64,000 bases of DNA, from NCBI RefSeq assembly GCF_054482525.1, contig NZ_CM137006.1. The stretch is one strand, 5' to 3'. The notes below the pieces were generated by a model, which was not told the DNA's origin, did not search any database, and worked only from the letters and a program-made list of their open reading frames with translations. A program made the position numbers and the translations under genes. Positions 1 to 16,895 of the stretch are shown in pieces. The stretch's first letter is position 1. The number at the start of each line of letters is the position of its first letter.

Positions 1-44
1 AACATCTTTGCAATCTTTTTTTGCTTATCTGTTGCGTTTGACAT
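1..44 (-). CDS. orf110 hypothetical protein, 5' 44 nt only (rest lies left of window)
   Basis: Positions 1-44 correspond to 8744-8787 of the complete copy-2 ORF 8455-8787. Confidence 0.4.
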   Translation of the reverse strand, partial: MSNATDKQKKIAKM

Positions 45-67
45 TTTCCCTTTCCCTTCAACTAGAT

Positions 68-364
68 TTAATCATTACATTCAACCGTTGCTACGGTTCC
101 ATAATAAGTAATGTAAAGAAAACTTCCATTATTGAACTGGCCAACAGAGGTCGATACTTTTACCCCGTAAATGACATTTCCTTGTCTACCTGCAGAATTC
201 ACGAACGCATCATAGGCTTCCTGGTGCTCATTTCTCTTGCGCTCCATAAAACCACGAATTAAACCTTTATCAGAAATTTCAATAGGATAGGTCTTCTCAA
301 TAAATCCATGAATCTCTACTACTTTCATATTGGAGGGCAATGTATCAGTGCTTAACACTAACAT
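68..364 (-). CDS. orf98, hypothetical accessory protein (first gene of a minus-strand two-gene cassette)
   Basis: 98-aa ORF with AAGGA Shine-Dalgarno about 8 nt upstream of the ATG; no TM segment or signal peptide apparent; no family recognised by eye. Confidence 0.55.
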   Translation of the reverse strand: MLVLSTDTLPSNMKVVEIHGFIEKTYPIEISDKGLIRGFMERKRNEHQEAYDAFVNSAGRQGNVIYGVKVSTSVGQFNNGSFLYITYYGTVATVECND

Positions 365-471
365 GTTGATTTCCTTTCAATTAAAGAACCTTAATGACAT
401 TACTTAATTATTTCATTTCAATCAACAACATATGGGTTGTTTTTTATCATTCCGACACTATATCTAGGCGA

Positions 472-494
472 GATAACTAAAATGGCTAGTTATC
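472..494. promoter_or_regulatory. Operator-like palindrome GATAACTA-N7-TAGTTATC in the divergent promoter region between orf98 and the 96-aa gene (recurs at +8743 multiples)
   Basis: Perfect 8-bp inverted repeat with 7-bp spacer, flanked by direct CACTATA repeats (456-462, 494-500), about 25 bp upstream of the ATG at 519. Confidence 0.4.
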
Positions 495-518
495 ACTATA
501 CCTCTAAAGGATAAAATA

Positions 519-809
519 ATGGCTGACTTCTACATAACAGCAGTAAAATATGATGAAAATCATGAACATATCGTTAAGGTTAAAACACGGCAACGAGTTG
601 ATGGTAAGGTTAAAGCACCAAGCATCAATTCTCGCCAATTTATCGTCGAATTGATTAATACCGGAAAGGTATCATTTTGGACTGGATTACAGGATAGCGA
701 AGGACGATGGGGAAAAGGGGCTGACGTGACCGTAACCTCTACTGGTTTCCTGACTACATCACCAAATAATACCACTCGGGATAACCTCGGCGAATTGCCT
801 GAATTTTAA
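519..809 (+). CDS. Hypothetical small protein (96 aa), possibly DUF3892-like
   Basis: AAAGG Shine-Dalgarno 8 nt upstream; the DUF3892 assignment rests on a recalled pattern only (N-terminal Y-I-T-x-V, H-x-H-I, C-terminal DNL-x-x-LPE) and needs an HMM search. Confidence 0.5.
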   Translation: MADFYITAVKYDENHEHIVKVKTRQRVDGKVKAPSINSRQFIVELINTGKVSFWTGLQDSEGRWGKGADVTVTSTGFLTTSPNNTTRDNLGELPEF

Positions 810-817
810 CCAAAAAT

Positions 818-850
818 CAAACGTGCAGTGTAGGTAATACTGCACGTTTG
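818..850. terminator. Stem-loop (11-bp stem) between convergent 96-aa gene and HTH gene; likely bidirectional terminator (recurs per copy)
   Basis: CAAACGTGCAG-N11-CTGCACGTTTG; T-run on the minus-strand side (ATTTTTGG). Confidence 0.55.
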
Positions 851-873
851 TCTCATTCCTGAGACTCTACCTT

Positions 874-1320
874 TTACTGTTCATCGCCAGTGATTAATTT
901 TCTGGTTAACATCTTTGCACTGTAGCTATATGAACTTAAAGCAGAAACCTGTCTTGCAAGTGATATGATATCTTGCTTGTCCAATGTCCTGATGTTCCAG
1001 ATAATGAAGTTATGGGCATCAGTGGTTTCTTTGTCAGTGTAACCATCTGCTGAAGTGATCAACTTTCTTTCTGTTGCGTCTTCTTTAACCGCAAGTGCAT
1101 CACCATGAGCCAAGGTGTTTAAATCCGTACCAGTGATTTTTGCGATTTCGATCACATCACTGAACTTAGGTTCTGTTTTAGCAGTCGCTATCCTAACAAG
1201 TGTCCTTACGTTGATGCCGGTTTTGTCTGCGACTTCTTCGTATGTCCCATGCTCCAGGATAGCTTTCCGTATTCTTTCTGCTCGCTTGCTATCAGCCATA
1301 ACATACAACTCTCGATTCAT
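874..1320 (-). CDS. HTH (XRE/Cro-C1-type) transcriptional regulator, candidate prophage repressor
   Basis: 148 aa; helix-turn-helix signature around residues 26-46 (TYEEVADKTGINVRTLVRIA); GGAG Shine-Dalgarno 9 nt upstream; divergent from gII across an operator-rich intergenic region. Confidence 0.7.
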   Translation of the reverse strand: MNRELYVMADSKRAERIRKAILEHGTYEEVADKTGINVRTLVRIATAKTEPKFSDVIEIAKITGTDLNTLAHGDALAVKEDATERKLITSADGYTDKETTDAHNFIIWNIRTLDKQDIISLARQVSALSSYSYSAKMLTRKLITGDEQ

Positions 1321-1364
1321 CTTAGGTGCTCCAGTTTACATCACTCTTTTTAGATGCTTTTTTT

Positions 1365-1442
1365 CATGGACAAATATGTCCTTAAAAACAAGACATCGTA
1401 TTGACAACAGATCTCAACATGCTTAGCATTTATTTGTCCATG
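1365..1442. promoter_or_regulatory. Candidate operator pair in the HTH-gII divergent intergenic region (recurs per copy)
   Basis: 12-mer TATTTGTCCATG at 1431-1442 with its reverse complement at 1365-1377; embedded palindrome GGACA-N4-TGTCC at 1368-1381; a degenerate third copy near 1455-1472. Confidence 0.45.
1401..1429 (+). promoter_or_regulatory. Candidate sigma70 promoter for gII (TTGACA-17 bp-TAGCAT)
   Basis: Consensus -35 hexamer at 1401-1406, 17-bp spacer, -10-like TAGCAT at 1424-1429; operator 12-mer lies at the predicted start region. Confidence 0.35.
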
Positions 1443-1526
1443 ACTGAAAGACACATTTGTCTATTGACATGGTAAATACAGGTAAAAGTCATTTTGATTC
1501 ATGTTTACTTGACTGCTGAGACACTT

Positions 1527-2579
1527 ATGATCGACTGGTTTACCGGAATCCTGCCTTGCACACACCGACCGTTACCGGCCGGTAGCGTCGTCAGCGTTGA
1601 TGCTGATGGTGCGGTGGAGTGGGAAACAGTAAAACGGTTGACCGTTCGCGGTTCGTATGAATCAACGATGAAAGTAAGATCTGTTGGATCTGATGGCGAA
1701 GGTCGGGCAACACATCTTTATATTGATGGGAATCCTTCAAAATTCCTTCAGGGACATTCTGTTATTGGTTCTGATGATTTGCAGGGACTGGTATTAACCG
1801 TATACGCAAGAATACTGGCATTACTTCATATTCCTCATGATCTCCCGTCATATCGTCAGGTAATGTCTGGTCAGTATAAGATTTCCCGTATTGATATTAA
1901 TTATATGTATTCATTGTCAACACTGGAAAATGTCCGTGCATGGTTATATGCCGCAGAATTTAAAGCGAAAACTCGCCATGGTCGCGCCTGTGGTAAAGGT
2001 GGCACTGTTTACTTAGGGAAAAACTCCCGTCGTTGGAGCCTGAAATTTTATTCAAAATATGATGAGCATATATCTGGCAAAAAAGGGCACCAGATGGCAG
2101 ACGAATTCGTTAAAGCAGGTTTACTGGACTGGTCAAAAGATAAATTACGCATTGAATTAACATTAAGAACAACTGAATTAATTGATTTGAATCTTACGCT
2201 TGGTAATAGCTGGAATATTCAGACGCCCAATAAATTATTCTCTGACTATGTAGGGAGAATAGAAATGAATCAAAATACTATATTAACTGATGAAAAAATA
2301 ATTAATCTCCCAAGAAAAATACAGTCTACATATTTATTGTGGAAGCAGGGCGCGAACATGAAAGAGATGTTACCGAAACCTACATTCTACCGACACCGTA
2401 AAGAATTACTTTCTTTCGGAATAGATATTAACTTTTATTGTGAGTCACCGGATTCTAATAACGTTGTTCCGTTGGTTCGTATTCTTGAAGCCAAACCGGC
2501 CAAAATTCCATCATGGTTTTATGAGAAAGGTTTAATTTTCGATCATAACCGTATTTCACATGCCAGTAACTGGTATTAA
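1527..2579 (+). CDS. gII: Rolling-circle replication initiator, gene II protein homologue
   Basis: N-terminus MIDWF and C-terminal block NNVVPLVR align with M13 gIIp as recalled; alternative in-frame ATG at 1494 (ORF-track start). Confidence 0.85.
   Translation: MIDWFTGILPCTHRPLPAGSVVSVDADGAVEWETVKRLTVRGSYESTMKVRSVGSDGEGRATHLYIDGNPSKFLQGHSVIGSDDLQGLVLTVYARILALLHIPHDLPSYRQVMSGQYKISRIDINYMYSLSTLENVRAWLYAAEFKAKTRHGRACGKGGTVYLGKNSRRWSLKFYSKYDEHISGKKGHQMADEFVKAGLLDWSKDKLRIELTLRTTELIDLNLTLGNSWNIQTPNKLFSDYVGRIEMNQNTILTDEKIINLPRKIQSTYLLWKQGANMKEMLPKPTFYRHRKELLSFGIDINFYCESPDSNNVVPLVRILEAKPAKIPSWFYEKGLIFDHNRISHASNWY
2265..2579 (+). CDS. gX: Gene X-like protein, in-frame internal restart within gII
   Basis: Internal ATG preceded by GGGAG (9 nt); MNQNT start aligns with the M13 gX start (EGDSMNIYDD versus GRIEMNQNT). 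Confidence 0.55.
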   Translation: MNQNTILTDEKIINLPRKIQSTYLLWKQGANMKEMLPKPTFYRHRKELLSFGIDINFYCESPDSNNVVPLVRILEAKPAKIPSWFYEKGLIFDHNRISHASNWY

Positions 2580-2590
2580 AGGAGAGTGAT

Positions 2591-2908
2591 ATGTCTAATT
2601 ATGGTCTTTTTGTAAAAGGTAAAATGCTTGGTGCTCGCCAGCGTAATAAGGTCAATGGTCAGGGATACTATAATGAAATTGGTATTGGCTTAGAGATCCC
2701 TGATGGTTTTGGCGGCACTAAGCAAGACCAGATTATTATTCGTGTTTCTCAGGCTCTTGTTAATGCCGGTGTAATGAATCAGGCAAATAATCTTATCGGT
2801 AAGTTAGTCCAGATACCTGTATATGTTCGTGTCTGGTCAATGGAAGGTAGAGAAGGAGTAACTTATAATATTTCATCTGACGGTGGAATCACTGAAATAA
2901 AAGGTTAA
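2591..2908 (+). CDS. gV: Putative ssDNA-binding protein, gene V analogue
   Basis: 105-aa ORF immediately after gII with AAGGAGAG Shine-Dalgarno; Ff-like position; only weak motif resemblance to M13 gVp. Confidence 0.55.
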   Translation: MSNYGLFVKGKMLGARQRNKVNGQGYYNEIGIGLEIPDGFGGTKQDQIIIRVSQALVNAGVMNQANNLIGKLVQIPVYVRVWSMEGREGVTYNISSDGGITEIKG

Positions 2909-2910
2909 AT

Positions 2911-2997
2911 ATGGCTGATGTTATACAAATATTAATAGCGTCAGGCATTGTTATCTCTTTTGGCCTCGGCGCAATTACTGCGGGGGTTTTTCGTTAA
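2911..2997 (+). CDS. gVII: Minor coat protein, gene VII analogue (28 aa)
   Basis: MADVIQILIASGIVISFGLGAITAGVFR; hydrophobic; C-terminal half resembles M13 gVIIp; too short for the ORF track. Confidence 0.5.
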   Translation: MADVIQILIASGIVISFGLGAITAGVFR

Positions 2998-3092
2998 TGT
3001 ATATAGCTTATTTCTTCGGGGCTTATACCTTTGGTTTTGCCCTTTTCTACGCGGTCGGTTCATTTAAATCATTTTCTGACCGATTAATGTAA
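2997..3092 (+). CDS. gIX: Minor coat protein, gene IX analogue (31 aa)
   Basis: MYIAYFFGAYTFGFALFYAVGSFKSFSDRLM; start overlaps the gVII stop by 1 nt (TAATG), as is typical for Ff VII/IX coupling. Confidence 0.45.
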   Translation: MYIAYFFGAYTFGFALFYAVGSFKSFSDRLM

Positions 3093-3116
3093 TGTAACTT
3101 TAATGGAGTTATTTAT

Positions 3117-3359
3117 ATGAAAGTTTTGTCTTTTGTTAAATCTAAAATTGCAGTAGCTTCAACAGCGCTTTTTGTTTCTGCGAGTTCTTTTGCGGCAGCT
3201 GAGTCTACAGGCGGGACTGATTATGCAGGTCAGGCAATGGATGCATTACTGACTCAGGCAAATGATCTTATTGGTAAAGTATGGCCTGTCGTTGTTGCTG
3301 TGGTTGGTGCTGGCCTTGCCATTCGTATTTTTAAAAAATTCGCTTCTAAAGCAGTTTAA
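3117..3359 (+). CDS. gVIII: Major coat protein precursor
   Basis: 80 aa; signal peptide ending SFAAAE, acidic N-terminus, hydrophobic core, basic C-terminus [12 protein letters not shown] (inovirus major-coat signature); GGAG Shine-Dalgarno. Confidence 0.85.
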
Positions 3360-3369
3360 AATTCACTCA

Positions 3370-3392
3370 GGGGCATTTGTTGCCCCTTTATT
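3370..3392 (+). terminator. Rho-independent terminator after the major coat gene (recurs per copy)
   Basis: GGGGCA-tttgt-TGCCCC followed by TTTATT; same position as the strong terminator after gVIII in Ff phages. Confidence 0.65.
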
Positions 3393-3405
3393 AAATTGGG
3401 TTATT

Positions 3406-4650
3406 ATGAAAAGGAAAATATTAATTACTTTCTCTATTTTTATTTCTTCTTTTTCATATGCTGATTCATGGGAAAGCATTACTAAATCTACTTTTCAAAG
3501 CTCTGCATATGCTGAAAGTAAGCAAATAACCAACCAAGATGGTACTAAACAAACTGTTTATTATATTGATGCAACCATGCAGGCTTCTTCCTGTCAGGGA
3601 GCTAAAGACAGTGCTCAGGTTGTTTTTAATCAGGTTAAACCAACTTATGAGGGAATGTGGCCTAACTCTGAATTCCGTCTTGTATTTTCTGACGCTTGTA
3701 CTTACAGCGACTCTCCAGGCCAGAAAGATAAATACTGGACTTTAACTGCTTATATTATAGGTGATATTCAACGATCTATTCCTGATGAAAAACCTTCCGA
3801 GCCTACGCCTGAAGAGATTTGTGAAGCTAAACCCCCCGAAGAAGGTGTATTCAATAATGTCTATTCTTATGACGGTGATCGTTATATTTATTATAACGGT
3901 TGTGAATATGAGGCCACTGGCGTCATTGTTTGCCAGAGTGATAGCACTGTTTGTGCTGCGACATGGAAGCCTACCGGAACTGTAGCCGCACCTTCAGATA
4001 AGCCTTCTTCTCCTGTTGGCGATGGCGGTGATACTGGAGGCGGGGATACGGGTGATGGTGATACCGGTGGAGGTGATACAGGCGGTGGTAACCCAAGTGG
4101 CAGTTCTGGCGGTGGTAATGGCTCAAGTATCACCAAAGGAGATATTCAGTCAGCTATCGAAGGTGCTTCACCTAAAATTGCCAGTGAGATTCATGATAAG
4201 TTAACAGAAAAAGATACCTCATCTGATGATAAAAAGTCGGCTGATGAACAGACTAAAAATAATATAAATCGTCTTGTTGACTCTATAAATAACCTTACTC
4301 GCGGAGCCGGACGTTTTGCTGATCCTTCTGGCGGCGATTCCCGTTATGGGGAGGGGGGGTCTGAATTAGATAGCGCTTCCACTTTAGCTGAATCTGAATT
4401 AGGAATTGCAAAGGATTCTCATGGTGCGTTATGGGAGGCTTTCTTAAATAAAGGTGCTATGTTGCCCAATTTACCTAATGGTAATGGTTGTTCTGATTTT
4501 ATTATTTTCCCCGGAGAGGTTTATCAGATCGATATTGGCTGCGATAAATTACTGACTATTAAAAATGCTCTTTCATGGGTTTTTTATTGCCTTACGTTCT
4601 GGTATGTATTTACTTCTTTAACTTCATTGCTTCGTAAAGGTGGTGAGTGA
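3406..4650 (+). CDS. gIII: Minor coat / adsorption protein pIII
   Basis: Signal peptide [19 protein letters not shown], Cys-containing N-terminal domains, Gly/Asp-rich linker repeats, C-terminal membrane anchor; ORF-track ORF 3262-4650 trimmed to the first in-frame ATG after the gVIII terminator. Confidence 0.8.
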
Positions 4651-4991
4651 TGCCTTTATTATTAGGTATTCCTGCATTGTTGCGTTTTCTTATTGGTCTT
4701 GTTCCTTTACTTATTGGCTATGCGGCAAGTTTTTTAGCTCGGCTTGCAACCAAAACAGGTTTAATAGCGGTTGCATTGGTTGCGCTAATTACAACAACTG
4801 TTACGCTTTTAATGCAGTACCTTGCTGAGGTCATGTATATCGGGTTACCCGCTGATTTTTCACATCTAATGGCGTCTGTACTGCCTGACCATTTTCAGGC
4901 GTGTGTTAACGTTATTATGGTTACTCGTATCAGTGTTTTTGTTTTCGATTTAAAACAAAAATTTCTTGATTATGCAAACAGGGTGATTTAA
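4647..4991 (+). CDS. gVI: Minor coat protein pVI
   Basis: 114 aa, hydrophobic; [15 protein letters not shown] aligns with M13 pVI MPVLLGIPLLLRFL. Confidence 0.8.
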
Positions 4992-6086
4992 ATGGCGGTT
5001 CATGTAGTAACAGGCAAATTAGGCTCAGGCAAGACACTGGTTAGTGTTTCCAGAATACAGGAAAGACTGGCTAAGGGTTGTCCTGTTGCCACTAATCTTG
5101 ATCTTAAATTGCATAATATGCCTATGGTTGGGCGTTATGCTAAAAAAACGCGCGTTATTCGTGTTCCTGATAAGCCTTCATTAAATGATTTACTGGCTAT
5201 TGGTATTGGAAATACATCTTACGATGAATCCCGCAATGGCCTTTTAGTGCTTGATGAATGTGGTACTTGGTTTAATTCCCGTTCATGGGGTGATAAAGAC
5301 AGACAACCTGTTATTGACTGGTTTTTACATGCCCGTAAATTAGGTTGGGATATTATTTTTTTGATTCAGGATATTTCGATAATGGATAAGCAAGCTCGTC
5401 TGGCACTTGCTGAACATGTTGTTTATTGTCGCCGTTCAGATAAATTAAACATTCCTTTTATTGGCTCTATTATAAATTTAGTTTCAGGAGCGCGATTTTC
5501 TTTACCAAAGGTACACTTTGGTATTGTTAAATATGGTGATAACGTTAATTCAATTACTGTTGATAAATGGATATACACCGGAAAATCATTATATTCCGCC
5601 TACAATACAAAACAGGTTTTTACTGATAACTATCCGCATGGTGCTTATTCTCTTTTACCGCCATTTATTACACATGGCCAGTTTTCTGTTCACAAAGGAC
5701 TTAATTATTATATGCGCCTCACGAAAATTTATTTCCGAAAATCAAACCGATTAATATTAATGCTTTCATTTTTTGCCTTTGGGCTTGGGCTTGGCTTCTG
5801 GCTACAATCTGGTAAGAATGCCGATGAAATTTCGGCTATTAAATCAGTTCATGCTGAACAGGTGAGGGCGGTAACACCTGACAGTACCAGCGATTTACCG
5901 AGACTTTCTATTGATTCTTTCTCTCAGCTTGGTTTTGATGTTTCTGTTACGTTTGTTGACGCTAAGGGTATGAAGTACCAGTATTTTGATTTAATTAAAG
6001 ATGGTTATTCCGTTGATATTAAAGATGCCTGCCGAATTGTTATCAGAAAAGGCCATTATTTACAAAGCGTCACCTGTCAGGAGTAA
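4992..6086 (+). CDS. gI: Assembly ATPase pI (Zot-like)
   Basis: 364 aa; Walker A GKLGSGKT; extensive similarity to M13 pI along the length as recalled. Confidence 0.9.
   Translation: MAVHVVTGKLGSGKTLVSVSRIQERLAKGCPVATNLDLKLHNMPMVGRYAKKTRVIRVPDKPSLNDLLAIGIGNTSYDESRNGLLVLDECGTWFNSRSWGDKDRQPVIDWFLHARKLGWDIIFLIQDISIMDKQARLALAEHVVYCRRSDKLNIPFIGSIINLVSGARFSLPKVHFGIVKYGDNVNSITVDKWIYTGKSLYSAYNTKQVFTDNYPHGAYSLLPPFITHGQFSVHKGLNYYMRLTKIYFRKSNRLILMLSFFAFGLGLGFWLQSGKNADEISAIKSVHAEQVRAVTPDSTSDLPRLSIDSFSQLGFDVSVTFVDAKGMKYQYFDLIKDGYSVDIKDACRIVIRKGHYLQSVTCQE
5712..6086 (+). CDS. gXI: pXI-like protein, in-frame internal restart within gI
   Basis: Internal Met at codon 241 (MRLTKIYFRK), the same codon position as M13 pXI (MKLTKIYLKK). 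Confidence 0.5.
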   Translation: MRLTKIYFRKSNRLILMLSFFAFGLGLGFWLQSGKNADEISAIKSVHAEQVRAVTPDSTSDLPRLSIDSFSQLGFDVSVTFVDAKGMKYQYFDLIKDGYSVDIKDACRIVIRKGHYLQSVTCQE

Positions 6087-6093
6087 TATTACT

Positions 6094-7359
6094 ATGCGTT
6101 TATTTTGCATTGCCATCTTATTCATTTATTCTTTTTGTGTTTCTGCTGAAACTGTTAATCTTAATAATTCATCCGTTCGTTCATTTGTCCAGTGGTATTC
6201 ATCAAAAACTGGTAAGCCTGTTATTGTTAACCCCGATGTTAAAGGCTCCGTAACAGTATTTAATGCTGATGTTAATCCCACAAATATTGATGACTTTTTC
6301 AAATCTGTTCTGAATGCTAATGGATTTGTCATGCTTTCTGGTAATCCTGCGGTAGTATCTTTGCCGTCAAAATTACCGTCACAGATGGCATCAGACCCTG
6401 ATGATTCCGATAATCAGTCTTATGACTCTTTTCCGCCAGAGCCATCCTGTCAGCCAGCGCCTGTGGCGCTCACTGTCAGAAATTTTAAGCTGACAAAAGT
6501 ACGAGCGTCTGATGTTCAGCAACTGGTTAAAATTTATCTGGATTCGAATGGCGGGGGTAATGTCGTGGATTATCCCGGCAATAACTCCCTGATTGTATCT
6601 GCGCCTGACGAGCTACTGCCTGTTCTGTCCAATTTCATTAACTCAGTTGATGTTGCCCGTGATCAGGTACTCATTCAATCGCTCATGTTTGAAACCAGTT
6701 TGTCTGATGGTGTTGATTTGTCATTTGCAGCTGGCTCTGCATCCGGCCATAAGGTGGCGGGGGGTTTTAATACTTCTGCGCTGGGTAATGCTCTTTCTAC
6801 GGTGGGCGGCTCTTTTGGTATTTTTGATGGTAACGTGTTGGCGCTGTCTCTGCGTGCTGTCCAGAGTAATTCACGCTCTAAGGTGATTTCAACACCGCGC
6901 ATTCTTACTCAGTCCGGTCAGACTGGTTATATTTCCGTAGGTAAGAATGTGCCGTTTATCACAGGAAAGGTAACGGGTGAATCTGCTGGGGTAAATAATC
7001 CGTTTCAGACTATCGAACGTCATGATGTTGGCGTTTCTCTCAAGGTAACGCCTGTTGTCATGGGGAACGGGCAATTAGTTTTGACCATCGATACCCGCGC
7101 CGATTCAATCAGCAATGATGACCAAGCATCTGATATTATTACTAATCAGCGCCAGATTCAGACCACTGTTCAGATTAAGGATGGCCAGACTCTCTTACTT
7201 GGTGGGTTGATTGATTCATCATCCAGCAATGCTGACCGTTCTGTACCATTTATCAGCAAAATTCCGGTAATTGGCTGGCTTTTCAGGAGTAAAGCTGACA
7301 GTAATGAGCAACGCATTATGTATGTCCTGCTGACTGCTCATATTATTCGTGCGCTTTGA
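6094..7359 (+). CDS. gIV: Secretin pIV (outer-membrane export channel)
   Basis: 421 aa from the ATG with AGGAG Shine-Dalgarno; signal peptide MRLFCIAILFIYSFCVSA; secretin motifs conserved with M13 pIV (e.g. GQNVPFITG-like, VPFISKIPVIG). Confidence 0.9.
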   Translation: MRLFCIAILFIYSFCVSAETVNLNNSSVRSFVQWYSSKTGKPVIVNPDVKGSVTVFNADVNPTNIDDFFKSVLNANGFVMLSGNPAVVSLPSKLPSQMASDPDDSDNQSYDSFPPEPSCQPAPVALTVRNFKLTKVRASDVQQLVKIYLDSNGGGNVVDYPGNNSLIVSAPDELLPVLSNFINSVDVARDQVLIQSLMFETSLSDGVDLSFAAGSASGHKVAGGFNTSALGNALSTVGGSFGIFDGNVLALSLRAVQSNSRSKVISTPRILTQSGQTGYISVGKNVPFITGKVTGESAGVNNPFQTIERHDVGVSLKVTPVVMGNGQLVLTIDTRADSISNDDQASDIITNQRQIQTTVQIKDGQTLLLGGLIDSSSSNADRSVPFISKIPVIGWLFRSKADSNEQRIMYVLLTAHIIRAL

Positions 7360-7402
7360 TGGGGCCGTGGCGGGTGCGTTAAGCCCCGGTATGGCCCCAT
7401 CA
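7357..7402 (+). terminator. Compound hairpin immediately after the secretin gene stop (recurs per copy)
   Basis: TGATGGGGCC ... GGCCCCATCA 10-bp inverted repeat enclosing a GC-rich inner region; start of the phage intergenic region. Confidence 0.4.
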
Positions 7403-7799
7403 AGAGCCAGATTTTACGTCTCACCACGGAGCCTCTATATGGCCTTAAAACTGACAGGATATGAACAGAAAAACATCTTCTAGGTGATTCAATTACTTAG
7501 AGGTTTTTATGTCTGTAAAAAGTAGGGGCGCGATCGACTTCCTGGTGGTCGCCTGAAGTCTTACCGTCGTGTTGGTTCACATTTTACCAGTTGTTCCAAG
7601 TGGTTTGATAAATCACCGTCCTGGTATCGCAATATGATGATGACCCGGCCAGAGCGCCGTGAAGTCAGAAAGCTTCTCAATCAGGTTGTACGTGGCCGTG
7701 ACGCTGACGGCATCGCATTTCCGGTCAGCAACAAGCCATTTGCATGGCGGTGGTGAACATTTTTAGCCGCTAAAACTTCATGCTGACGGAATTATCGAA

Positions 7800-7844
7800 A
7801 ACCCCGTACAGCAACAAAACTTGTTTTTGTTGCTGTACGGGGTT
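7800..7844. other. Perfect 20-bp-stem hairpin (5-nt loop) in the intergenic region: candidate packaging signal and/or minus-strand terminator for orf81 (recurs per copy)
   Basis: AAACCCCGTACAGCAACAAAA-cttgt-TTTTGTTGCTGTACGGGGTT; TTTTC follows on the minus strand. Confidence 0.5.
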
Positions 7845-7906
7845 GGCCAAGCCGCAACAGTACTCTATTTTTCTTTGGAGTTAATTGCGGCGCGGCTAGG
7901 GATGTA

Positions 7907-8152
7907 TCAGACTTTAATCTTAACTACTTTTTCAGTGCCGGTCATAAAACTAACCAGCTTCTTGCGGCCATCGGGATACTCTTTAATGACACATCCTTCT
8001 GGCGTATTTTTTTCAGCGTAATAAATAGGGACGCCACTAAGAAGACAGGCTCGGGCTGCTTCACCGACATCATGTTCTAGTTGCTGCTCGAAAACAGTCA
8101 AGAACTCTGCTTCCTCTGATGGTGTCATTTCAGCTAAATATGATAAGTCCAT
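7907..8152 (-). CDS. orf81, hypothetical accessory protein
   Basis: 81-aa ORF between the intergenic hairpin region and the att site; the 20-bp-stem hairpin at 7800-7844 is followed by a T-run on the minus strand and could terminate it. Confidence 0.45.
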   Translation of the reverse strand: MDLSYLAEMTPSEEAEFLTVFEQQLEHDVGEAARACLLSGVPIYYAEKNTPEGCVIKEYPDGRKKLVSFMTGTEKVVKIKV

Positions 8153-8354
8153 AAATGCTCATGCCTTCTGTAATTCATTGCTTAGTAACAATGATGAACA
8201 GGCCTGATTGGTGAGGTCAGGCTGTTCACTTACTGCTGACAGACATTTGATTCTGATTCGTTTGGAGAAACGGATGATTTTGAATCATTGTCGATAGTAA
8301 CCAGTTGACGGCCAGTGTCAACGATCCCCGCCAGATTCTGCCATCCTTACCATT

Positions 8355-8387
8355 GGTGCGCATAATGTGCTACACGTTATGTTGAAA
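8355..8387 (+). other. Phage att (dif-like) site at copy junction: XerC arm GGTGCGCATAA, 11-bp spacer TGTGCTACACG, XerD-like arm TTATGTTGAAA
   Basis: Perfect match to the XerC-binding arm of E. coli dif; best XerD-like arm (9 of 11) is displaced 5 bp relative to dif geometry. Confidence 0.8.
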
Positions 8388-8420
8388 AGGCCGCTGCGAA
8401 AATAGAACCCCGCAGCGGCC
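8385..8420 (-). terminator. Rho-independent terminator for the minus-strand orf98-orf110 cassette, abutting the att site (recurs per copy)
   Basis: GGCCGCTGCG-N12-CGCAGCGGCC with a T-run on the minus strand (8385-8388). Confidence 0.55.
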
Positions 8421-8454
8421 TCTTTAGCATAACGTCATTGTGCGAACCAATTAT

Positions 8455-8787
8455 TTATTTTTTTGATTTTTGAGTTGCCTCAATTTCTTTTTTTAAACCA
8501 TGAAGGTTTTTATGACCGGTTCCCTTTGGTTGTAACTGTCCCCTTTGTAACTTACTGATTCTATTTCCTCTTTCTGATATTACTATTTCATCATTCAGGG
8601 ATTTTTCAATCAATGCATACAACGCATTGAATACTTTGATGTTTTCTGATTCCCTCAACTCTTCGAGGATTTTACTTAGTTGTAGAAAGTCATTAATTAA
8701 ACTAACGCCATTTTTAGGATCGTAAAACTCCTCATGTCGTTTTAACATCTTTGCAATCTTTTTTTGCTTATCTGTTGCGTTTGACAT
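8455..8787 (-). CDS. orf110, hypothetical accessory protein (second gene of the minus-strand cassette)
   Basis: 110 aa, charged, basic C-terminal tail, no TM segment; 23-bp gap after orf98; followed by a hairpin plus T-run terminator at 8385-8420. Confidence 0.55.
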   Translation of the reverse strand: MSNATDKQKKIAKMLKRHEEFYDPKNGVSLINDFLQLSKILEELRESENIKVFNALYALIEKSLNDEIVISERGNRISKLQRGQLQPKGTGHKNLHGLKKEIEATQKSKK

Positions 8788-8810
8788 TTTCCCTTTCCCT
8801 TCAACTAGAT

Positions 8811-9107
8811 TTAATCATTACATTCAACCGTTGCTACGGTTCCATAATAAGTAATGTAAAGAAAACTTCCATTATTGAACTGGCCAACAGAGGTCGATAC
8901 TTTTACCCCGTAAATGACATTTCCTTGTCTACCTGCAGAATTCACGAACGCATCATAGGCTTCCTGGTGCTCATTTCTCTTGCGCTCCATAAAACCACGA
9001 ATTAAACCTTTATCAGAAATTTCAATAGGATAGGTCTTCTCAATAAATCCATGAATCTCTACTACTTTCATATTGGAGGGCAATGTATCAGTGCTTAACA
9101 CTAACAT
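8811..9107 (-). CDS. orf98 hypothetical accessory protein (copy 2)
   Basis: Repeat of 68-364 at +8743; identical translation. Confidence 0.55.
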   Translation of the reverse strand: MLVLSTDTLPSNMKVVEIHGFIEKTYPIEISDKGLIRGFMERKRNEHQEAYDAFVNSAGRQGNVIYGVKVSTSVGQFNNGSFLYITYYGTVATVECND

Positions 9108-9261
9108 GTTGATTTCCTTTCAATTAAAGAACCTTAATGACATTACTTAATTATTTCATTTCAATCAACAACATATGGGTTGTTTTTTATCATTCCGACA
9201 CTATATCTAGGCGAGATAACTAAAATGGCTAGTTATCACTATACCTCTAAAGGATAAAATA

Positions 9262-9552
9262 ATGGCTGACTTCTACATAACAGCAGTAAAATATGATGAA
9301 AATCATGAACATATCGTTAAGGTTAAAACACGGCAACGAGTTGATGGTAAGGTTAAAGCACCAAGCATCAATTCTCGCCAATTTATCGTCGAATTGATTA
9401 ATACCGGAAAGGTATCATTTTGGACTGGATTACAGGATAGCGAAGGACGATGGGGAAAAGGGGCTGACGTGACCGTAACCTCTACTGGTTTCCTGACTAC
9501 ATCACCAAATAATACCACTCGGGATAACCTCGGCGAATTGCCTGAATTTTAA
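9262..9552 (+). CDS. Hypothetical small protein (96 aa), possibly DUF3892-like (copy 2)
   Basis: Repeat of 519-809 at +8743. Confidence 0.5.
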   Translation: MADFYITAVKYDENHEHIVKVKTRQRVDGKVKAPSINSRQFIVELINTGKVSFWTGLQDSEGRWGKGADVTVTSTGFLTTSPNNTTRDNLGELPEF

Positions 9553-9616
9553 CCAAAAATCAAACGTGCAGTGTAGGTAATACTGCACGTTTGTCTCATT
9601 CCTGAGACTCTACCTT

Positions 9617-10063
9617 TTACTGTTCATCGCCAGTGATTAATTTTCTGGTTAACATCTTTGCACTGTAGCTATATGAACTTAAAGCAGAAACCTGTCTTGC
9701 AAGTGATATGATATCTTGCTTGTCCAATGTCCTGATGTTCCAGATAATGAAGTTATGGGCATCAGTGGTTTCTTTGTCAGTGTAACCATCTGCTGAAGTG
9801 ATCAACTTTCTTTCTGTTGCGTCTTCTTTAACCGCAAGTGCATCACCATGAGCCAAGGTGTTTAAATCCGTACCAGTGATTTTTGCGATTTCGATCACAT
9901 CACTGAACTTAGGTTCTGTTTTAGCAGTCGCTATCCTAACAAGTGTCCTTACGTTGATGCCGGTTTTGTCTGCGACTTCTTCGTATGTCCCATGCTCCAG
10001 GATAGCTTTCCGTATTCTTTCTGCTCGCTTGCTATCAGCCATAACATACAACTCTCGATTCAT
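9617..10063 (-). CDS. HTH regulator, candidate repressor (copy 2)
   Basis: Repeat of 874-1320 at +8743. Confidence 0.7.
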   Translation of the reverse strand: MNRELYVMADSKRAERIRKAILEHGTYEEVADKTGINVRTLVRIATAKTEPKFSDVIEIAKITGTDLNTLAHGDALAVKEDATERKLITSADGYTDKETTDAHNFIIWNIRTLDKQDIISLARQVSALSSYSYSAKMLTRKLITGDEQ

Positions 10064-10269
10064 CTTAGGTGCTCCAGTTTACATCACTCTTTTTAGATGC
10101 TTTTTTTCATGGACAAATATGTCCTTAAAAACAAGACATCGTATTGACAACAGATCTCAACATGCTTAGCATTTATTTGTCCATGACTGAAAGACACATT
10201 TGTCTATTGACATGGTAAATACAGGTAAAAGTCATTTTGATTCATGTTTACTTGACTGCTGAGACACTT

Positions 10270-11322
10270 ATGATCGACTGGTTTACCGGAATCCTGCCTT
10301 GCACACACCGACCGTTACCGGCCGGTAGCGTCGTCAGCGTTGATGCTGATGGTGCGGTGGAGTGGGAAACAGTAAAACGGTTGACCGTTCGCGGTTCGTA
10401 TGAATCAACGATGAAAGTAAGATCTGTTGGATCTGATGGCGAAGGTCGGGCAACACATCTTTATATTGATGGGAATCCTTCAAAATTCCTTCAGGGACAT
10501 TCTGTTATTGGTTCTGATGATTTGCAGGGACTGGTATTAACCGTATACGCAAGAATACTGGCATTACTTCATATTCCTCATGATCTCCCGTCATATCGTC
10601 AGGTAATGTCTGGTCAGTATAAGATTTCCCGTATTGATATTAATTATATGTATTCATTGTCAACACTGGAAAATGTCCGTGCATGGTTATATGCCGCAGA
10701 ATTTAAAGCGAAAACTCGCCATGGTCGCGCCTGTGGTAAAGGTGGCACTGTTTACTTAGGGAAAAACTCCCGTCGTTGGAGCCTGAAATTTTATTCAAAA
10801 TATGATGAGCATATATCTGGCAAAAAAGGGCACCAGATGGCAGACGAATTCGTTAAAGCAGGTTTACTGGACTGGTCAAAAGATAAATTACGCATTGAAT
10901 TAACATTAAGAACAACTGAATTAATTGATTTGAATCTTACGCTTGGTAATAGCTGGAATATTCAGACGCCCAATAAATTATTCTCTGACTATGTAGGGAG
11001 AATAGAAATGAATCAAAATACTATATTAACTGATGAAAAAATAATTAATCTCCCAAGAAAAATACAGTCTACATATTTATTGTGGAAGCAGGGCGCGAAC
11101 ATGAAAGAGATGTTACCGAAACCTACATTCTACCGACACCGTAAAGAATTACTTTCTTTCGGAATAGATATTAACTTTTATTGTGAGTCACCGGATTCTA
11201 ATAACGTTGTTCCGTTGGTTCGTATTCTTGAAGCCAAACCGGCCAAAATTCCATCATGGTTTTATGAGAAAGGTTTAATTTTCGATCATAACCGTATTTC
11301 ACATGCCAGTAACTGGTATTAA
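10270..11322 (+). CDS. gII: Replication initiator gII homologue (copy 2)
   Basis: Repeat of 1527-2579 at +8743; nested gX-like restart at 11008. Confidence 0.85.
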   Translation: MIDWFTGILPCTHRPLPAGSVVSVDADGAVEWETVKRLTVRGSYESTMKVRSVGSDGEGRATHLYIDGNPSKFLQGHSVIGSDDLQGLVLTVYARILALLHIPHDLPSYRQVMSGQYKISRIDINYMYSLSTLENVRAWLYAAEFKAKTRHGRACGKGGTVYLGKNSRRWSLKFYSKYDEHISGKKGHQMADEFVKAGLLDWSKDKLRIELTLRTTELIDLNLTLGNSWNIQTPNKLFSDYVGRIEMNQNTILTDEKIINLPRKIQSTYLLWKQGANMKEMLPKPTFYRHRKELLSFGIDINFYCESPDSNNVVPLVRILEAKPAKIPSWFYEKGLIFDHNRISHASNWY

Positions 11323-11333
11323 AGGAGAGTGAT

Positions 11334-11651
11334 ATGTCTAATTATGGTCTTTTTGTAAAAGGTAAAATGCTTGGTGCTCGCCAGCGTAATAAGGTCAATG
11401 GTCAGGGATACTATAATGAAATTGGTATTGGCTTAGAGATCCCTGATGGTTTTGGCGGCACTAAGCAAGACCAGATTATTATTCGTGTTTCTCAGGCTCT
11501 TGTTAATGCCGGTGTAATGAATCAGGCAAATAATCTTATCGGTAAGTTAGTCCAGATACCTGTATATGTTCGTGTCTGGTCAATGGAAGGTAGAGAAGGA
11601 GTAACTTATAATATTTCATCTGACGGTGGAATCACTGAAATAAAAGGTTAA
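11334..11651 (+). CDS. gV: Putative ssDNA-binding protein gV analogue (copy 2)
   Basis: Repeat at +8743. Confidence 0.55.
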   Translation: MSNYGLFVKGKMLGARQRNKVNGQGYYNEIGIGLEIPDGFGGTKQDQIIIRVSQALVNAGVMNQANNLIGKLVQIPVYVRVWSMEGREGVTYNISSDGGITEIKG

Positions 11652-11653
11652 AT

Positions 11654-11740
11654 ATGGCTGATGTTATACAAATATTAATAGCGTCAGGCATTGTTATCTC
11701 TTTTGGCCTCGGCGCAATTACTGCGGGGGTTTTTCGTTAA
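11654..11740 (+). CDS. gVII: gVII analogue (copy 2)
   Basis: Repeat at +8743. Confidence 0.5.
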   Translation: MADVIQILIASGIVISFGLGAITAGVFR

Positions 11741-11835
11741 TGTATATAGCTTATTTCTTCGGGGCTTATACCTTTGGTTTTGCCCTTTTCTACGCGGTCG
11801 GTTCATTTAAATCATTTTCTGACCGATTAATGTAA
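11740..11835 (+). CDS. gIX: gIX analogue (copy 2)
   Basis: Repeat at +8743. Confidence 0.45.
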   Translation: MYIAYFFGAYTFGFALFYAVGSFKSFSDRLM

Positions 11836-11859
11836 TGTAACTTTAATGGAGTTATTTAT

Positions 11860-12102
11860 ATGAAAGTTTTGTCTTTTGTTAAATCTAAAATTGCAGTAGC
11901 TTCAACAGCGCTTTTTGTTTCTGCGAGTTCTTTTGCGGCAGCTGAGTCTACAGGCGGGACTGATTATGCAGGTCAGGCAATGGATGCATTACTGACTCAG
12001 GCAAATGATCTTATTGGTAAAGTATGGCCTGTCGTTGTTGCTGTGGTTGGTGCTGGCCTTGCCATTCGTATTTTTAAAAAATTCGCTTCTAAAGCAGTTT
12101 AA
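11860..12102 (+). CDS. gVIII: Major coat protein precursor (copy 2)
   Basis: Repeat at +8743. Confidence 0.85.
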
Positions 12103-12148
12103 AATTCACTCAGGGGCATTTGTTGCCCCTTTATTAAATTGGGTTATT

Positions 12149-13393
12149 ATGAAAAGGAAAATATTAATTACTTTCTCTATTTTTATTTCTTCTTTTTCAT
12201 ATGCTGATTCATGGGAAAGCATTACTAAATCTACTTTTCAAAGCTCTGCATATGCTGAAAGTAAGCAAATAACCAACCAAGATGGTACTAAACAAACTGT
12301 TTATTATATTGATGCAACCATGCAGGCTTCTTCCTGTCAGGGAGCTAAAGACAGTGCTCAGGTTGTTTTTAATCAGGTTAAACCAACTTATGAGGGAATG
12401 TGGCCTAACTCTGAATTCCGTCTTGTATTTTCTGACGCTTGTACTTACAGCGACTCTCCAGGCCAGAAAGATAAATACTGGACTTTAACTGCTTATATTA
12501 TAGGTGATATTCAACGATCTATTCCTGATGAAAAACCTTCCGAGCCTACGCCTGAAGAGATTTGTGAAGCTAAACCCCCCGAAGAAGGTGTATTCAATAA
12601 TGTCTATTCTTATGACGGTGATCGTTATATTTATTATAACGGTTGTGAATATGAGGCCACTGGCGTCATTGTTTGCCAGAGTGATAGCACTGTTTGTGCT
12701 GCGACATGGAAGCCTACCGGAACTGTAGCCGCACCTTCAGATAAGCCTTCTTCTCCTGTTGGCGATGGCGGTGATACTGGAGGCGGGGATACGGGTGATG
12801 GTGATACCGGTGGAGGTGATACAGGCGGTGGTAACCCAAGTGGCAGTTCTGGCGGTGGTAATGGCTCAAGTATCACCAAAGGAGATATTCAGTCAGCTAT
12901 CGAAGGTGCTTCACCTAAAATTGCCAGTGAGATTCATGATAAGTTAACAGAAAAAGATACCTCATCTGATGATAAAAAGTCGGCTGATGAACAGACTAAA
13001 AATAATATAAATCGTCTTGTTGACTCTATAAATAACCTTACTCGCGGAGCCGGACGTTTTGCTGATCCTTCTGGCGGCGATTCCCGTTATGGGGAGGGGG
13101 GGTCTGAATTAGATAGCGCTTCCACTTTAGCTGAATCTGAATTAGGAATTGCAAAGGATTCTCATGGTGCGTTATGGGAGGCTTTCTTAAATAAAGGTGC
13201 TATGTTGCCCAATTTACCTAATGGTAATGGTTGTTCTGATTTTATTATTTTCCCCGGAGAGGTTTATCAGATCGATATTGGCTGCGATAAATTACTGACT
13301 ATTAAAAATGCTCTTTCATGGGTTTTTTATTGCCTTACGTTCTGGTATGTATTTACTTCTTTAACTTCATTGCTTCGTAAAGGTGGTGAGTGA
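12149..13393 (+). CDS. gIII: Adsorption protein pIII (copy 2)
   Basis: Repeat at +8743. Confidence 0.8.
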
Positions 13394-13734
13394 TGCCTTT
13401 ATTATTAGGTATTCCTGCATTGTTGCGTTTTCTTATTGGTCTTGTTCCTTTACTTATTGGCTATGCGGCAAGTTTTTTAGCTCGGCTTGCAACCAAAACA
13501 GGTTTAATAGCGGTTGCATTGGTTGCGCTAATTACAACAACTGTTACGCTTTTAATGCAGTACCTTGCTGAGGTCATGTATATCGGGTTACCCGCTGATT
13601 TTTCACATCTAATGGCGTCTGTACTGCCTGACCATTTTCAGGCGTGTGTTAACGTTATTATGGTTACTCGTATCAGTGTTTTTGTTTTCGATTTAAAACA
13701 AAAATTTCTTGATTATGCAAACAGGGTGATTTAA
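13390..13734 (+). CDS. gVI: Minor coat protein pVI (copy 2)
   Basis: Repeat at +8743. Confidence 0.8.
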
Positions 13735-14829
13735 ATGGCGGTTCATGTAGTAACAGGCAAATTAGGCTCAGGCAAGACACTGGTTAGTGTTTCCAGAATA
13801 CAGGAAAGACTGGCTAAGGGTTGTCCTGTTGCCACTAATCTTGATCTTAAATTGCATAATATGCCTATGGTTGGGCGTTATGCTAAAAAAACGCGCGTTA
13901 TTCGTGTTCCTGATAAGCCTTCATTAAATGATTTACTGGCTATTGGTATTGGAAATACATCTTACGATGAATCCCGCAATGGCCTTTTAGTGCTTGATGA
14001 ATGTGGTACTTGGTTTAATTCCCGTTCATGGGGTGATAAAGACAGACAACCTGTTATTGACTGGTTTTTACATGCCCGTAAATTAGGTTGGGATATTATT
14101 TTTTTGATTCAGGATATTTCGATAATGGATAAGCAAGCTCGTCTGGCACTTGCTGAACATGTTGTTTATTGTCGCCGTTCAGATAAATTAAACATTCCTT
14201 TTATTGGCTCTATTATAAATTTAGTTTCAGGAGCGCGATTTTCTTTACCAAAGGTACACTTTGGTATTGTTAAATATGGTGATAACGTTAATTCAATTAC
14301 TGTTGATAAATGGATATACACCGGAAAATCATTATATTCCGCCTACAATACAAAACAGGTTTTTACTGATAACTATCCGCATGGTGCTTATTCTCTTTTA
14401 CCGCCATTTATTACACATGGCCAGTTTTCTGTTCACAAAGGACTTAATTATTATATGCGCCTCACGAAAATTTATTTCCGAAAATCAAACCGATTAATAT
14501 TAATGCTTTCATTTTTTGCCTTTGGGCTTGGGCTTGGCTTCTGGCTACAATCTGGTAAGAATGCCGATGAAATTTCGGCTATTAAATCAGTTCATGCTGA
14601 ACAGGTGAGGGCGGTAACACCTGACAGTACCAGCGATTTACCGAGACTTTCTATTGATTCTTTCTCTCAGCTTGGTTTTGATGTTTCTGTTACGTTTGTT
14701 GACGCTAAGGGTATGAAGTACCAGTATTTTGATTTAATTAAAGATGGTTATTCCGTTGATATTAAAGATGCCTGCCGAATTGTTATCAGAAAAGGCCATT
14801 ATTTACAAAGCGTCACCTGTCAGGAGTAA
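13735..14829 (+). CDS. gI: Assembly ATPase pI (copy 2)
   Basis: Repeat at +8743; nested pXI-like restart at 14455. Confidence 0.9.
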   Translation: MAVHVVTGKLGSGKTLVSVSRIQERLAKGCPVATNLDLKLHNMPMVGRYAKKTRVIRVPDKPSLNDLLAIGIGNTSYDESRNGLLVLDECGTWFNSRSWGDKDRQPVIDWFLHARKLGWDIIFLIQDISIMDKQARLALAEHVVYCRRSDKLNIPFIGSIINLVSGARFSLPKVHFGIVKYGDNVNSITVDKWIYTGKSLYSAYNTKQVFTDNYPHGAYSLLPPFITHGQFSVHKGLNYYMRLTKIYFRKSNRLILMLSFFAFGLGLGFWLQSGKNADEISAIKSVHAEQVRAVTPDSTSDLPRLSIDSFSQLGFDVSVTFVDAKGMKYQYFDLIKDGYSVDIKDACRIVIRKGHYLQSVTCQE

Positions 14830-14836
14830 TATTACT

Positions 14837-16102
14837 ATGCGTTTATTTTGCATTGCCATCTTATTCATTTATTCTTTTTGTGTTTCTGCTGAAACTGTTA
14901 ATCTTAATAATTCATCCGTTCGTTCATTTGTCCAGTGGTATTCATCAAAAACTGGTAAGCCTGTTATTGTTAACCCCGATGTTAAAGGCTCCGTAACAGT
15001 ATTTAATGCTGATGTTAATCCCACAAATATTGATGACTTTTTCAAATCTGTTCTGAATGCTAATGGATTTGTCATGCTTTCTGGTAATCCTGCGGTAGTA
15101 TCTTTGCCGTCAAAATTACCGTCACAGATGGCATCAGACCCTGATGATTCCGATAATCAGTCTTATGACTCTTTTCCGCCAGAGCCATCCTGTCAGCCAG
15201 CGCCTGTGGCGCTCACTGTCAGAAATTTTAAGCTGACAAAAGTACGAGCGTCTGATGTTCAGCAACTGGTTAAAATTTATCTGGATTCGAATGGCGGGGG
15301 TAATGTCGTGGATTATCCCGGCAATAACTCCCTGATTGTATCTGCGCCTGACGAGCTACTGCCTGTTCTGTCCAATTTCATTAACTCAGTTGATGTTGCC
15401 CGTGATCAGGTACTCATTCAATCGCTCATGTTTGAAACCAGTTTGTCTGATGGTGTTGATTTGTCATTTGCAGCTGGCTCTGCATCCGGCCATAAGGTGG
15501 CGGGGGGTTTTAATACTTCTGCGCTGGGTAATGCTCTTTCTACGGTGGGCGGCTCTTTTGGTATTTTTGATGGTAACGTGTTGGCGCTGTCTCTGCGTGC
15601 TGTCCAGAGTAATTCACGCTCTAAGGTGATTTCAACACCGCGCATTCTTACTCAGTCCGGTCAGACTGGTTATATTTCCGTAGGTAAGAATGTGCCGTTT
15701 ATCACAGGAAAGGTAACGGGTGAATCTGCTGGGGTAAATAATCCGTTTCAGACTATCGAACGTCATGATGTTGGCGTTTCTCTCAAGGTAACGCCTGTTG
15801 TCATGGGGAACGGGCAATTAGTTTTGACCATCGATACCCGCGCCGATTCAATCAGCAATGATGACCAAGCATCTGATATTATTACTAATCAGCGCCAGAT
15901 TCAGACCACTGTTCAGATTAAGGATGGCCAGACTCTCTTACTTGGTGGGTTGATTGATTCATCATCCAGCAATGCTGACCGTTCTGTACCATTTATCAGC
16001 AAAATTCCGGTAATTGGCTGGCTTTTCAGGAGTAAAGCTGACAGTAATGAGCAACGCATTATGTATGTCCTGCTGACTGCTCATATTATTCGTGCGCTTT
16101 GA
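14837..16102 (+). CDS. gIV: Secretin pIV (copy 2)
   Basis: Repeat at +8743. Confidence 0.9.
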   Translation: MRLFCIAILFIYSFCVSAETVNLNNSSVRSFVQWYSSKTGKPVIVNPDVKGSVTVFNADVNPTNIDDFFKSVLNANGFVMLSGNPAVVSLPSKLPSQMASDPDDSDNQSYDSFPPEPSCQPAPVALTVRNFKLTKVRASDVQQLVKIYLDSNGGGNVVDYPGNNSLIVSAPDELLPVLSNFINSVDVARDQVLIQSLMFETSLSDGVDLSFAAGSASGHKVAGGFNTSALGNALSTVGGSFGIFDGNVLALSLRAVQSNSRSKVISTPRILTQSGQTGYISVGKNVPFITGKVTGESAGVNNPFQTIERHDVGVSLKVTPVVMGNGQLVLTIDTRADSISNDDQASDIITNQRQIQTTVQIKDGQTLLLGGLIDSSSSNADRSVPFISKIPVIGWLFRSKADSNEQRIMYVLLTAHIIRAL

Positions 16103-16649: not shown

Positions 16650-16895
16650 TCAGACTTTAATCTTAACTACTTTTTCAGTGCCGGTCATAAAACTAACCAG
16701 CTTCTTGCGGCCATCGGGATACTCTTTAATGACACATCCTTCTGGCGTATTTTTTTCAGCGTAATAAATAGGGACGCCACTAAGAAGACAGGCTCGGGCT
16801 GCTTCACCGACATCATGTTCTAGTTGCTGCTCGAAAACAGTCAAGAACTCTGCTTCCTCTGATGGTGTCATTTCAGCTAAATATGATAAGTCCAT
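16650..16895 (-). CDS. orf81 hypothetical accessory protein (copy 2)
   Basis: Repeat at +8743. Confidence 0.45.
   Translation of the reverse strand: MDLSYLAEMTPSEEAEFLTVFEQQLEHDVGEAARACLLSGVPIYYAEKNTPEGCVIKEYPDGRKKLVSFMTGTEKVVKIKV

Follow-up and report, generated by a model that had tools for sequence, protein, structure and literature searches.

A glycine-rich protein linker encoded by short tandem DNA repeats raises the question of whether its length is free to change and, if so, by which route and how readily. Such a linker is found in the 64,000-nucleotide stretch of DNA analysed here (hereafter the window; contig NZ_CM137006.1, NCBI RefSeq assembly GCF_054482525.1), within gene III, which codes for the attachment protein (g3p or pIII) of a filamentous prophage. 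A first-pass annotation of the window had singled out this linker as a potential hotspot of variability. The features on which our analysis bears are collected in Table 1.

Table 1. Coordinates of the features discussed in the text (positions are those of the window)
Feature	Position	Strand	Basis
Gene III (attachment protein g3p/pIII), 414 aa + stop	3406..4650	+	RefSeq start of 99% identical E. coli homologue; Pfam
Identical gene III copies	12149-13393, 20892-22136, 29635-30879		
gVIII	3117-3359		
Probable signal peptide, residues 1-19	3406-3462	+	Inferred from pLDDT <50 and from the PDB chain starting at D20
N-terminal pilus-binding domain (predicted), residues 20-128	3463..3789	+	4EO0, PF21443, AF2 pLDDT ~90
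TolA-binding-type domain, residues 130-194	3793..3987	+	4EO1, fd/f1 N1 matches, PF05357
Pro/Ser-rich linker lead-in, residues 195-205	3988..4020	+	Translation; between folded domain and low-confidence AF2 segment
Four imperfect 15-nt tandem units, [D/G]GGDT type, residues 206-225	4021..4080	+	TRF, codon layout, motif search, lag-15 test
Gly/Ser/Asn-rich linker tail, residues 226-240	4081..4125	+	Lag-15 match 0.37, without 15-periodicity
11-nt exact direct repeat GGCGGTGGTAA	4081-4091 and 4108-4118	+	27 nt apart; longest exact repeat in linker
C-terminal domain, residues 241-414, helical with C-terminal hydrophobic helix	4126..4647	+	AF2; full-length alignment to IKe/I2-2 g3p
Proline-rich 81-aa ORF	3891..4136	-	Mechanical ORF list; compositional artefact, not a gene
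Tandem array of 8,743-bp filamentous prophage units	1..34597	+	Shift identity, half-dif search; first unit cut by window edge
Full 28-bp E. coli dif	34584..34611	+	Exact match to GGTGCGCATAATGTATATTATGTTAAAT; right array end
HTH regulator, accessory region	874-1320	-	
DUF3892 protein, accessory region	519-809	+	
Accessory ORFs without family	68-364, 7907-8152, 8455-8787	-	

Predicted domains of the gene III product

Annotated relatives and homology place the true start of gene III at position 3406 (MKRKILITF...). The mechanical list of open reading frames had used ATG 3262, 144 nt further upstream, which carries the frame into the end of gVIII; this start was rejected, as the homologues start at 3406. 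The exact protein is already present in public databases, as the 'attachment protein' of E. coli and Salmonella. A phmmer search against the PDB matched residues 20-128 to 4EO0 (IKe G3P; E=7e-27) and residues 130-194 to 4EO1 (IKe G3P; E=4.8e-25), the second segment also matching the N1 domain of fd/f1 g3p (1G3P, 2G3P and 8B3O). In Pfam, PF21443 (G3P pilus-binding) was found at residues 22-125 (E=7.6e-24), followed by PF05357 (Phage_Coat_A) at residues 135-176 (E=3.8e-8); NCBIfam gave no family for g3p. The connector between the two domains is short and rich in Pro and Glu. Judged by these matches, the protein is an inovirus attachment protein of the IKe type, with predicted binding to a pilus and to TolA.

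The AF2 model, built on an alignment of 35 sequences, gives a pLDDT of about 90 for residues 20-200 and of about 30 (<50), with no secondary structure, for residues 206-243, which are flanked by confident domains; the C-terminal domain (244-411) is helical, at 244-347 and 379-411, with a long hydrophobic helix at its end. In the 35 homologues, and also in the full-length alignment with IKe and I2-2 g3p, there are C-terminal residues that do not vary, and by analogy with f1 pIII (PMC10175506) this domain probably provides the virion anchor and a membrane segment. Positions 4021-4125 (105 nt) correspond exactly to residues 206-240. By analogy with Ff and IKe, as described in the literature, they would encode a disordered tether running from the TolA-binding domain to the C-terminal virion anchor; in f1, the pIII linkers are flexible and invisible in the cryo-EM map (PMC10175506). 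The first-pass assignment of the segment to a pIII linker is thus borne out by both Pfam families, by both IKe structures and by the low AF2 confidence over residues 206-243.

The prophage array at dif and its relatives

When the window was compared with itself at a shift of 8,743 bases, a unit of that length was found to be repeated at 100% identity over positions 1-34597. The four or more prophage copies announced by the first-pass annotation are therefore present: at least four lie in the window, all 100% identical, and the array is cut by the left window edge, so that the true number is possibly higher. The half dif site GGTGCGCATAATGT, i.e., the first 14 bases of dif, is found at the unit junctions (8355, 17098 and 25841), and several E. 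coli chromosomes match the sequence past the full dif at 100% identity. The identical tandem copies probably arose by recent multiple integration, or by replication, of a single phage genome at dif.

Each unit carries, according to Pfam, genes for a replication protein (G2P), an ssDNA-binding protein (G5P), the major coat protein (G8P), gIII, DUF5455 (at the position of gVI), a Zot-like gI and a secretin, gIV. Gene III has gVIII on one side and gVI-gI-gIV on the other (Phage_coatGP8, DUF5455, Zot and Secretin), which is concordant with the annotation of relatives, and the gene order is of the inovirus type. A prophage in APEC E19057 is 98% identical to that of the window. The accessory region between gIV and gII (1-1320, 7363-8743 and the equivalents in each unit) is unlike that of close relatives: of its ORFs, only the one at 7907-8152 is common to the APEC E19057 prophage, in which the nearest match to the HTH regulator has only 43% identity.

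TRF reported two further short imperfect repeats, which recur in the other copies: one of 21 nt x 1.9 at 4677-4717, close to where gVI begins, and one of 12 nt x 2.2 at 3286-3312, where gVIII codes for its hydrophobic part. Both lie in regions coding for membrane segments. In addition, two of the database proteins, P0036 and P0079, are chimeric, one being formed by the N-terminal two-thirds of g3p and the C-terminal part of gI (Zot), and one by a secretin and a fragment of g3p; they suggest that some prophage copies have been internally deleted or rearranged, unless they are products of mis-assembly.

A unit of 8.7 kb at dif had led to CUS-1/YpfΦ as a first guess. This identity was dropped, since genes II and V are all that UPΦ has in common with YpfΦ (PMC7307601) and ECONIH2, a genome to which the unit was compared, is a UPΦ case, named as such by Shapiro and Putonti (2020, Virus Evol 6:veaa030; PMC7307601). 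UPΦ integrates in tandem at dif and is related to IKe and I2-2, and IncI pili are suspected to be its receptor (PMC7307601). In tblastn searches, gII, gV, gVIII, gIII, gVI, gI and gIV matched the UPΦ prophage of ECONIH2 at 82-96% aa identity and in colinear order, the core being 86% identical at the nucleotide level. UPΦ901 is delimited by >99% aa identity and by a GGGES motif; the identity found here is 82-96%, with the ECONIH2 prophage serving as a stand-in for UPΦ901, and the linker is of another motif. A megablast search of the whole unit against the phage collection returned only a 75% match to I2-2, over part of gene I, and no deposited phage genome of the present lineage was found in that collection. 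On the strength of these sequence comparisons, the phage is a divergent lineage of the UPΦ group with a GGDT-type linker, and not UPΦ901.

Four codon-diverged units in the linker

Within the linker, TRF detected an array of period 15 at 4023-4079 (score 58; 3.8 copies with 76% matches), with counterparts at 12766, 21509 and 30252. The codons at 4021-4080 fall into four units: GAT GGC GGT GAT ACT; GGA GGC GGG GAT ACG; GGT GAT GGT GAT ACC; and GGT GGA GGT GAT ACA. Each prophage copy contains the motif GGNGATACNGG four times and no more, at a spacing of 15 nt, which makes 16 matches in the window against 0.23 expected, and the lag-15 nucleotide match over the same 60 positions is 0.73, as compared with 0.47 +/- 0.07 after codon shuffling, with none of 20,000 shuffles reaching 0.73. 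The first-pass annotation had spoken of four or more consecutive units. Four is confirmed, and the 'or more' is to be dropped, as the lag-15 match is low in the tail that follows (Table 1). The units of the window allele are identical to one another at 10-12 of 15 nt (67-80%). Their differences lie mostly at third codon positions, and the Thr codon is a different one in each unit (ACT, ACG, ACC and ACA).

The proline-rich ORF on the reverse strand had been dismissed at the outset as a mirror artefact, and we concur. All three reverse frames are free of stop codons across the linker in 16 of 16 alleles, as is to be expected of a G-rich coding strand, and substitutions fall mainly at position 3 of the forward codons (67/104 in the comparison with L003 and 144/211 with L004). 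Composition and codon-position evidence together rule out this ORF as an overlapping gene.

Linker length among related prophages

In an alignment of 13 E. coli homologues, all length differences lay in the linker. The linker was then cut out of 72 database homologues by means of the conserved segments on both sides. Among full-length homologues of at least 64% identity, the non-linker part measures 364 aa (363 or 365 in three), and the linker occurs in 13 lengths: 41, 43, 45, 46, 48, 50, 53, 55, 56, 57, 60, 61 and 76 aa; in E. coli genomes, it spans 46 to 77 aa. Repeat number is thus not the same in all related prophages, and the linker is the indel hotspot of gene III among them. Within the phage's own clade (at least 87% identity), the number of GGDT units is four in most alleles, five in P0011 and six in P0016-P0019 and P0024. 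Shorter linkers are also found in this clade, in P0021 and P0022 (both -9 residues), P0014 (-5) and P0009 (-2), of which P0009 and P0014 were compared at the protein level. The equivalent of the tail (4081-4125) is likewise variable in length in relatives, by -5 and -9 residues, and some changes do not amount to whole 15-nt units (-2 residues in P0009; +3 or +5 in P0023, P0025 and P0028).

Several alleles show how the length has changed. In L014, units 3-4 are duplicated as a 30-bp block, which leaves a 38-nt exact repeat; in L018, two different single units have each been duplicated, in two separate 15-bp duplications; and L016 has one 15-bp duplication relative to L017, the two otherwise showing 12 differences in about 3,250 positions. 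L019 (protein P0021) lacks exactly 27 bp between the GGCGGTGGTAA arms, both of which are present in the window. P0011 and P0012 provide a further difference in copy number between close relatives. The codons of the four ancestral units are distinct, so that an added unit can be recognised as an exact copy, and each event as derived and independent of the others. In the phage's own clade, four or more independent in-frame events bear signatures of slippage, and these signatures point to slippage as the probable mechanism of length change. The view that the linker is a slippage-prone hotspot is supported among the relatives by their linker lengths, the exact duplications and the 27-bp deletion, but applies less to the allele in the window, whose units have diverged and whose longest exact repeat is the 11-nt pair.

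Could the differences in linker length be artefacts of assembly or sequencing in a low-complexity repeat? The gene III copies of EC5502 differ by 1-3 nt, with frameshifts across the array, as is typical of uncorrected long-read error, and the sequence of F11 is frameshifted in a run of six C residues at the linker start. However, the linker DNA measures 123-231 bp and can be spanned by single short reads, and apart from EC5502 and F11 the variants are in frame and altered by repeat-bounded blocks. Moreover, at least 25 independent contigs carry the six-unit allele P0018 and 6 carry P0011, complete PacBio/Illumina genomes are each internally consistent while being different among themselves, and the same variation was seen in an independent study, including in that study's own isolates (PMC7307601). 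We regard an artefactual origin of the length differences as very improbable.

The frameshifts deserve mention in their own right. Gene III is frameshifted at or near the C6 run ACCCCCCAA in L008 (E. coli F11, CP076123) and in L006 and L020 (EC5502, CP092647), and a run of nine G residues is found within the linker of some GGDT alleles (L017). The frameshifts of F11 and EC5502 could represent long-read error, or else gene III may truly have become a pseudogene or be phase-variable; for UPΦ, an early stop was reported in one gene III (PMC7307601).

Linkers of tandem copies within one genome

The first-pass annotation had also suggested that repeat number be compared among prophage copies, and that recombination between them could alter the linker. 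Repeat number is identical within the window: its four copies are alike, and nothing in the window itself shows any instability of the linker. No variation of the linker between tandem copies was seen in the four copies of the window or in three other clean assemblies, those of ECONIH2 (three copies), KFu015 (three) and SCPM-O-B-12142 (two), and inter-copy recombination altering the linker left no sign in these four genomes. In the tandem copies of the same genomes, there was likewise no evidence for high-frequency switching within a population or for on/off phase variation. EC5502, with 11 gene III places, had been considered as a genome with differing linkers and was rejected, as its differences are homopolymer-type errors of 1-3 nt and frameshifts affect many of its genes.

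These comparisons bear on the idea that linker length is changed by homologous recombination between tandem prophage copies and not by intramolecular slippage. In YpfΦ, arrays of this kind change in copy number (PMC4266046), and identical tandem copies lend themselves well to RecA-dependent exchange. Yet in-register exchange between identical 8.7-kb units cannot alter the linker, and out-of-register exchange would have to act within about 140 bp of linker on identities of 11 nt, much shorter than RecA needs to work efficiently. The copies are identical in all four genomes compared, and the events seen are local changes of 15-30 bp. We regard recombination between copies as very improbable, and the suggestion is not upheld by our results.

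Repeat purity and the stability of the window allele

The length of exact repeats differs between two types of linker within the phage group. GGDT-type alleles have exact repeats of 11-14 nt and are mostly of one length, whereas GGGES-type alleles, which in E. coli are those of the published UPΦ phages, consist of perfect repeats of 15 or 30 bp, contain exact repeats of 26-101 nt and occur in many lengths. In the GGDT clade the 50-aa linker, with four units, is by far the commonest, as counted on public contigs and hence subject to sampling bias. With units only 67-80% identical, the slippage rate of the window allele may be very low; judged by its repeats, this allele appears to be a poor substrate for slippage and a comparatively stable form.

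Taken together, the results favour, with a probability of about 0.85, a disordered tether whose length is polymorphic through slippage or unequal exchange, the allele in the window being a common and fairly stable form. According to this proposal, the tether would join the two receptor-binding domains to a C-terminal domain anchored in the virion tip. Because flexibility and solubility would be all that is required of it, in-frame changes in its length would be tolerated. The short direct repeats in the DNA would allow replication slippage or unequal exchange to add or remove 15-nt units and, at times, other repeat-bounded blocks, with linker-length polymorphism among related phages as the outcome. 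The ancestral state of the clade would be four units, the codons of which have drifted apart; because this drift would lower the rate of slippage, the allele found in the window would have remained common and fairly stable.

The length of the linker need not be without consequence, and a different proposal is that it is under diversifying or directional selection, either tuning the reach or avidity for pili or envelopes or serving to evade host defences, as an adaptive contingency locus. The indels never break the reading frame and the peptide motif persists while the codons drift, and for these reasons the composition of the linker appears to be under purifying selection. In Ff phages, linker length reportedly affects infectivity. 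A possible effect on host range has been raised for UPΦ by Shapiro and Putonti (PMC7307601). However, in the account of Bruno and Bradbury (1997) given in PMC7307601, a longer glycine-rich region conferred no selective advantage on IKe, the nearest relative to have been characterised. In addition, one and the same 50-aa linker occurs in E. coli, Salmonella and Klebsiella hosts, and linker length did not track the host in the data examined. Selection on length therefore seems unlikely to us, and a near-neutral length, as the IKe account and the spread over hosts suggest, is the likelier case.

A more specific form of the same idea is no likelier: how far the five receptor-binding g3p heads reach, or how avidly they bind particular conjugative pili or envelope architectures, would depend on the length, the codon-scrambled four-unit allele would be kept for the stability of an optimal length, and the perfect GGGES repeats would act as a fast-mutating 'tuning knob' of host range. 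We accordingly retain as our working model a tether of polymorphic length, with a common and fairly stable allele in the window.

Significance and comparison with known systems

For the window itself, the outcome matters little beyond annotation: the start of gene III is set at 3406, a spurious reverse-strand ORF is dismissed, and the prophage is assigned to the UPΦ group already known from the literature, as a divergent, GGDT-type lineage. A small additional point is that linkers of a single phage group are nearly fixed in length where their repeats have diverged in codons, and occur in many lengths where the DNA repeats are perfect. The group offers an example from nature of slippage being governed by repeat purity, which could be of use in designing stable Gly-rich linkers for phage display. 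If linker length does affect host range, it would also offer a cheap marker for the typing of prophages, or for prediction, in uropathogenic and avian E. coli and in Salmonella.

Variability of this linker is not new, having been described for UPΦ by Shapiro and Putonti (2020) and for IKe by Bruno and Bradbury (1997), and the present case can be set beside four known systems. Bacterial VNTR and contingency loci resemble it in having short in-frame tandem repeats, the copy number of which is changed by slippage, new units being exact copies of their neighbours. They differ in that the allele in the window is low in repeat purity and gives no evidence of high-frequency or on/off switching.

The pIII linkers of the Ff phages (f1/fd/M13; EGGGS/GGGS) are likewise flexible, disordered, Gly-rich tethers to the C domain, and their TolA-binding N1 domain is homologous to the one found here. 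Ff pIII, however, has two Gly-rich linkers and the opposite order of domains, with the TolA-binding N1 followed by the pilus-binding N2, whereas in the present protein the first connector is rich in Pro and Glu and only the distal linker is Gly-rich.

The g3p of IKe and I2-2 (Lineavirus, N-pilus-specific) is closer, with the same pilus-binding domain, TolA-binding domain, Gly-rich linker and C-terminal domain, and with 53-56% identity over the matched parts. Its linker in IKe contains GGDTGG, GGSTGG and GGSSGG type units and is reported to vary naturally in length, the glycine-rich region having diversified within a few laboratory generations (Bruno and Bradbury 1997, as cited in PMC7307601). 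IKe and I2-2 are, in contrast, non-integrating phages of 6.7-6.9 kb with a linker of 67 aa, against 50 aa here, and their similarity to the present unit at the DNA level is limited to part of gene I.

UPΦ (UPΦ901), a filamentous prophage of Enterobacterales, is the most similar system. Like the present prophage, it is arranged in tandem at dif, half-dif sites marking the junctions; its core genes are the same and follow the same order; and its g3p is of the IKe type. No part of the phage is more variable than the glycine-rich linker that joins the N- and C-terminal parts of this protein. [quoted passage not shown] The two differ in the accessory genes between gIV and gII and in the repeat itself: the unit is GGDT[G] here and GGGES in UPΦ, and the units of the present linker are codon-diverged and much less variable in copy number, whereas those of UPΦ are perfect DNA repeats.
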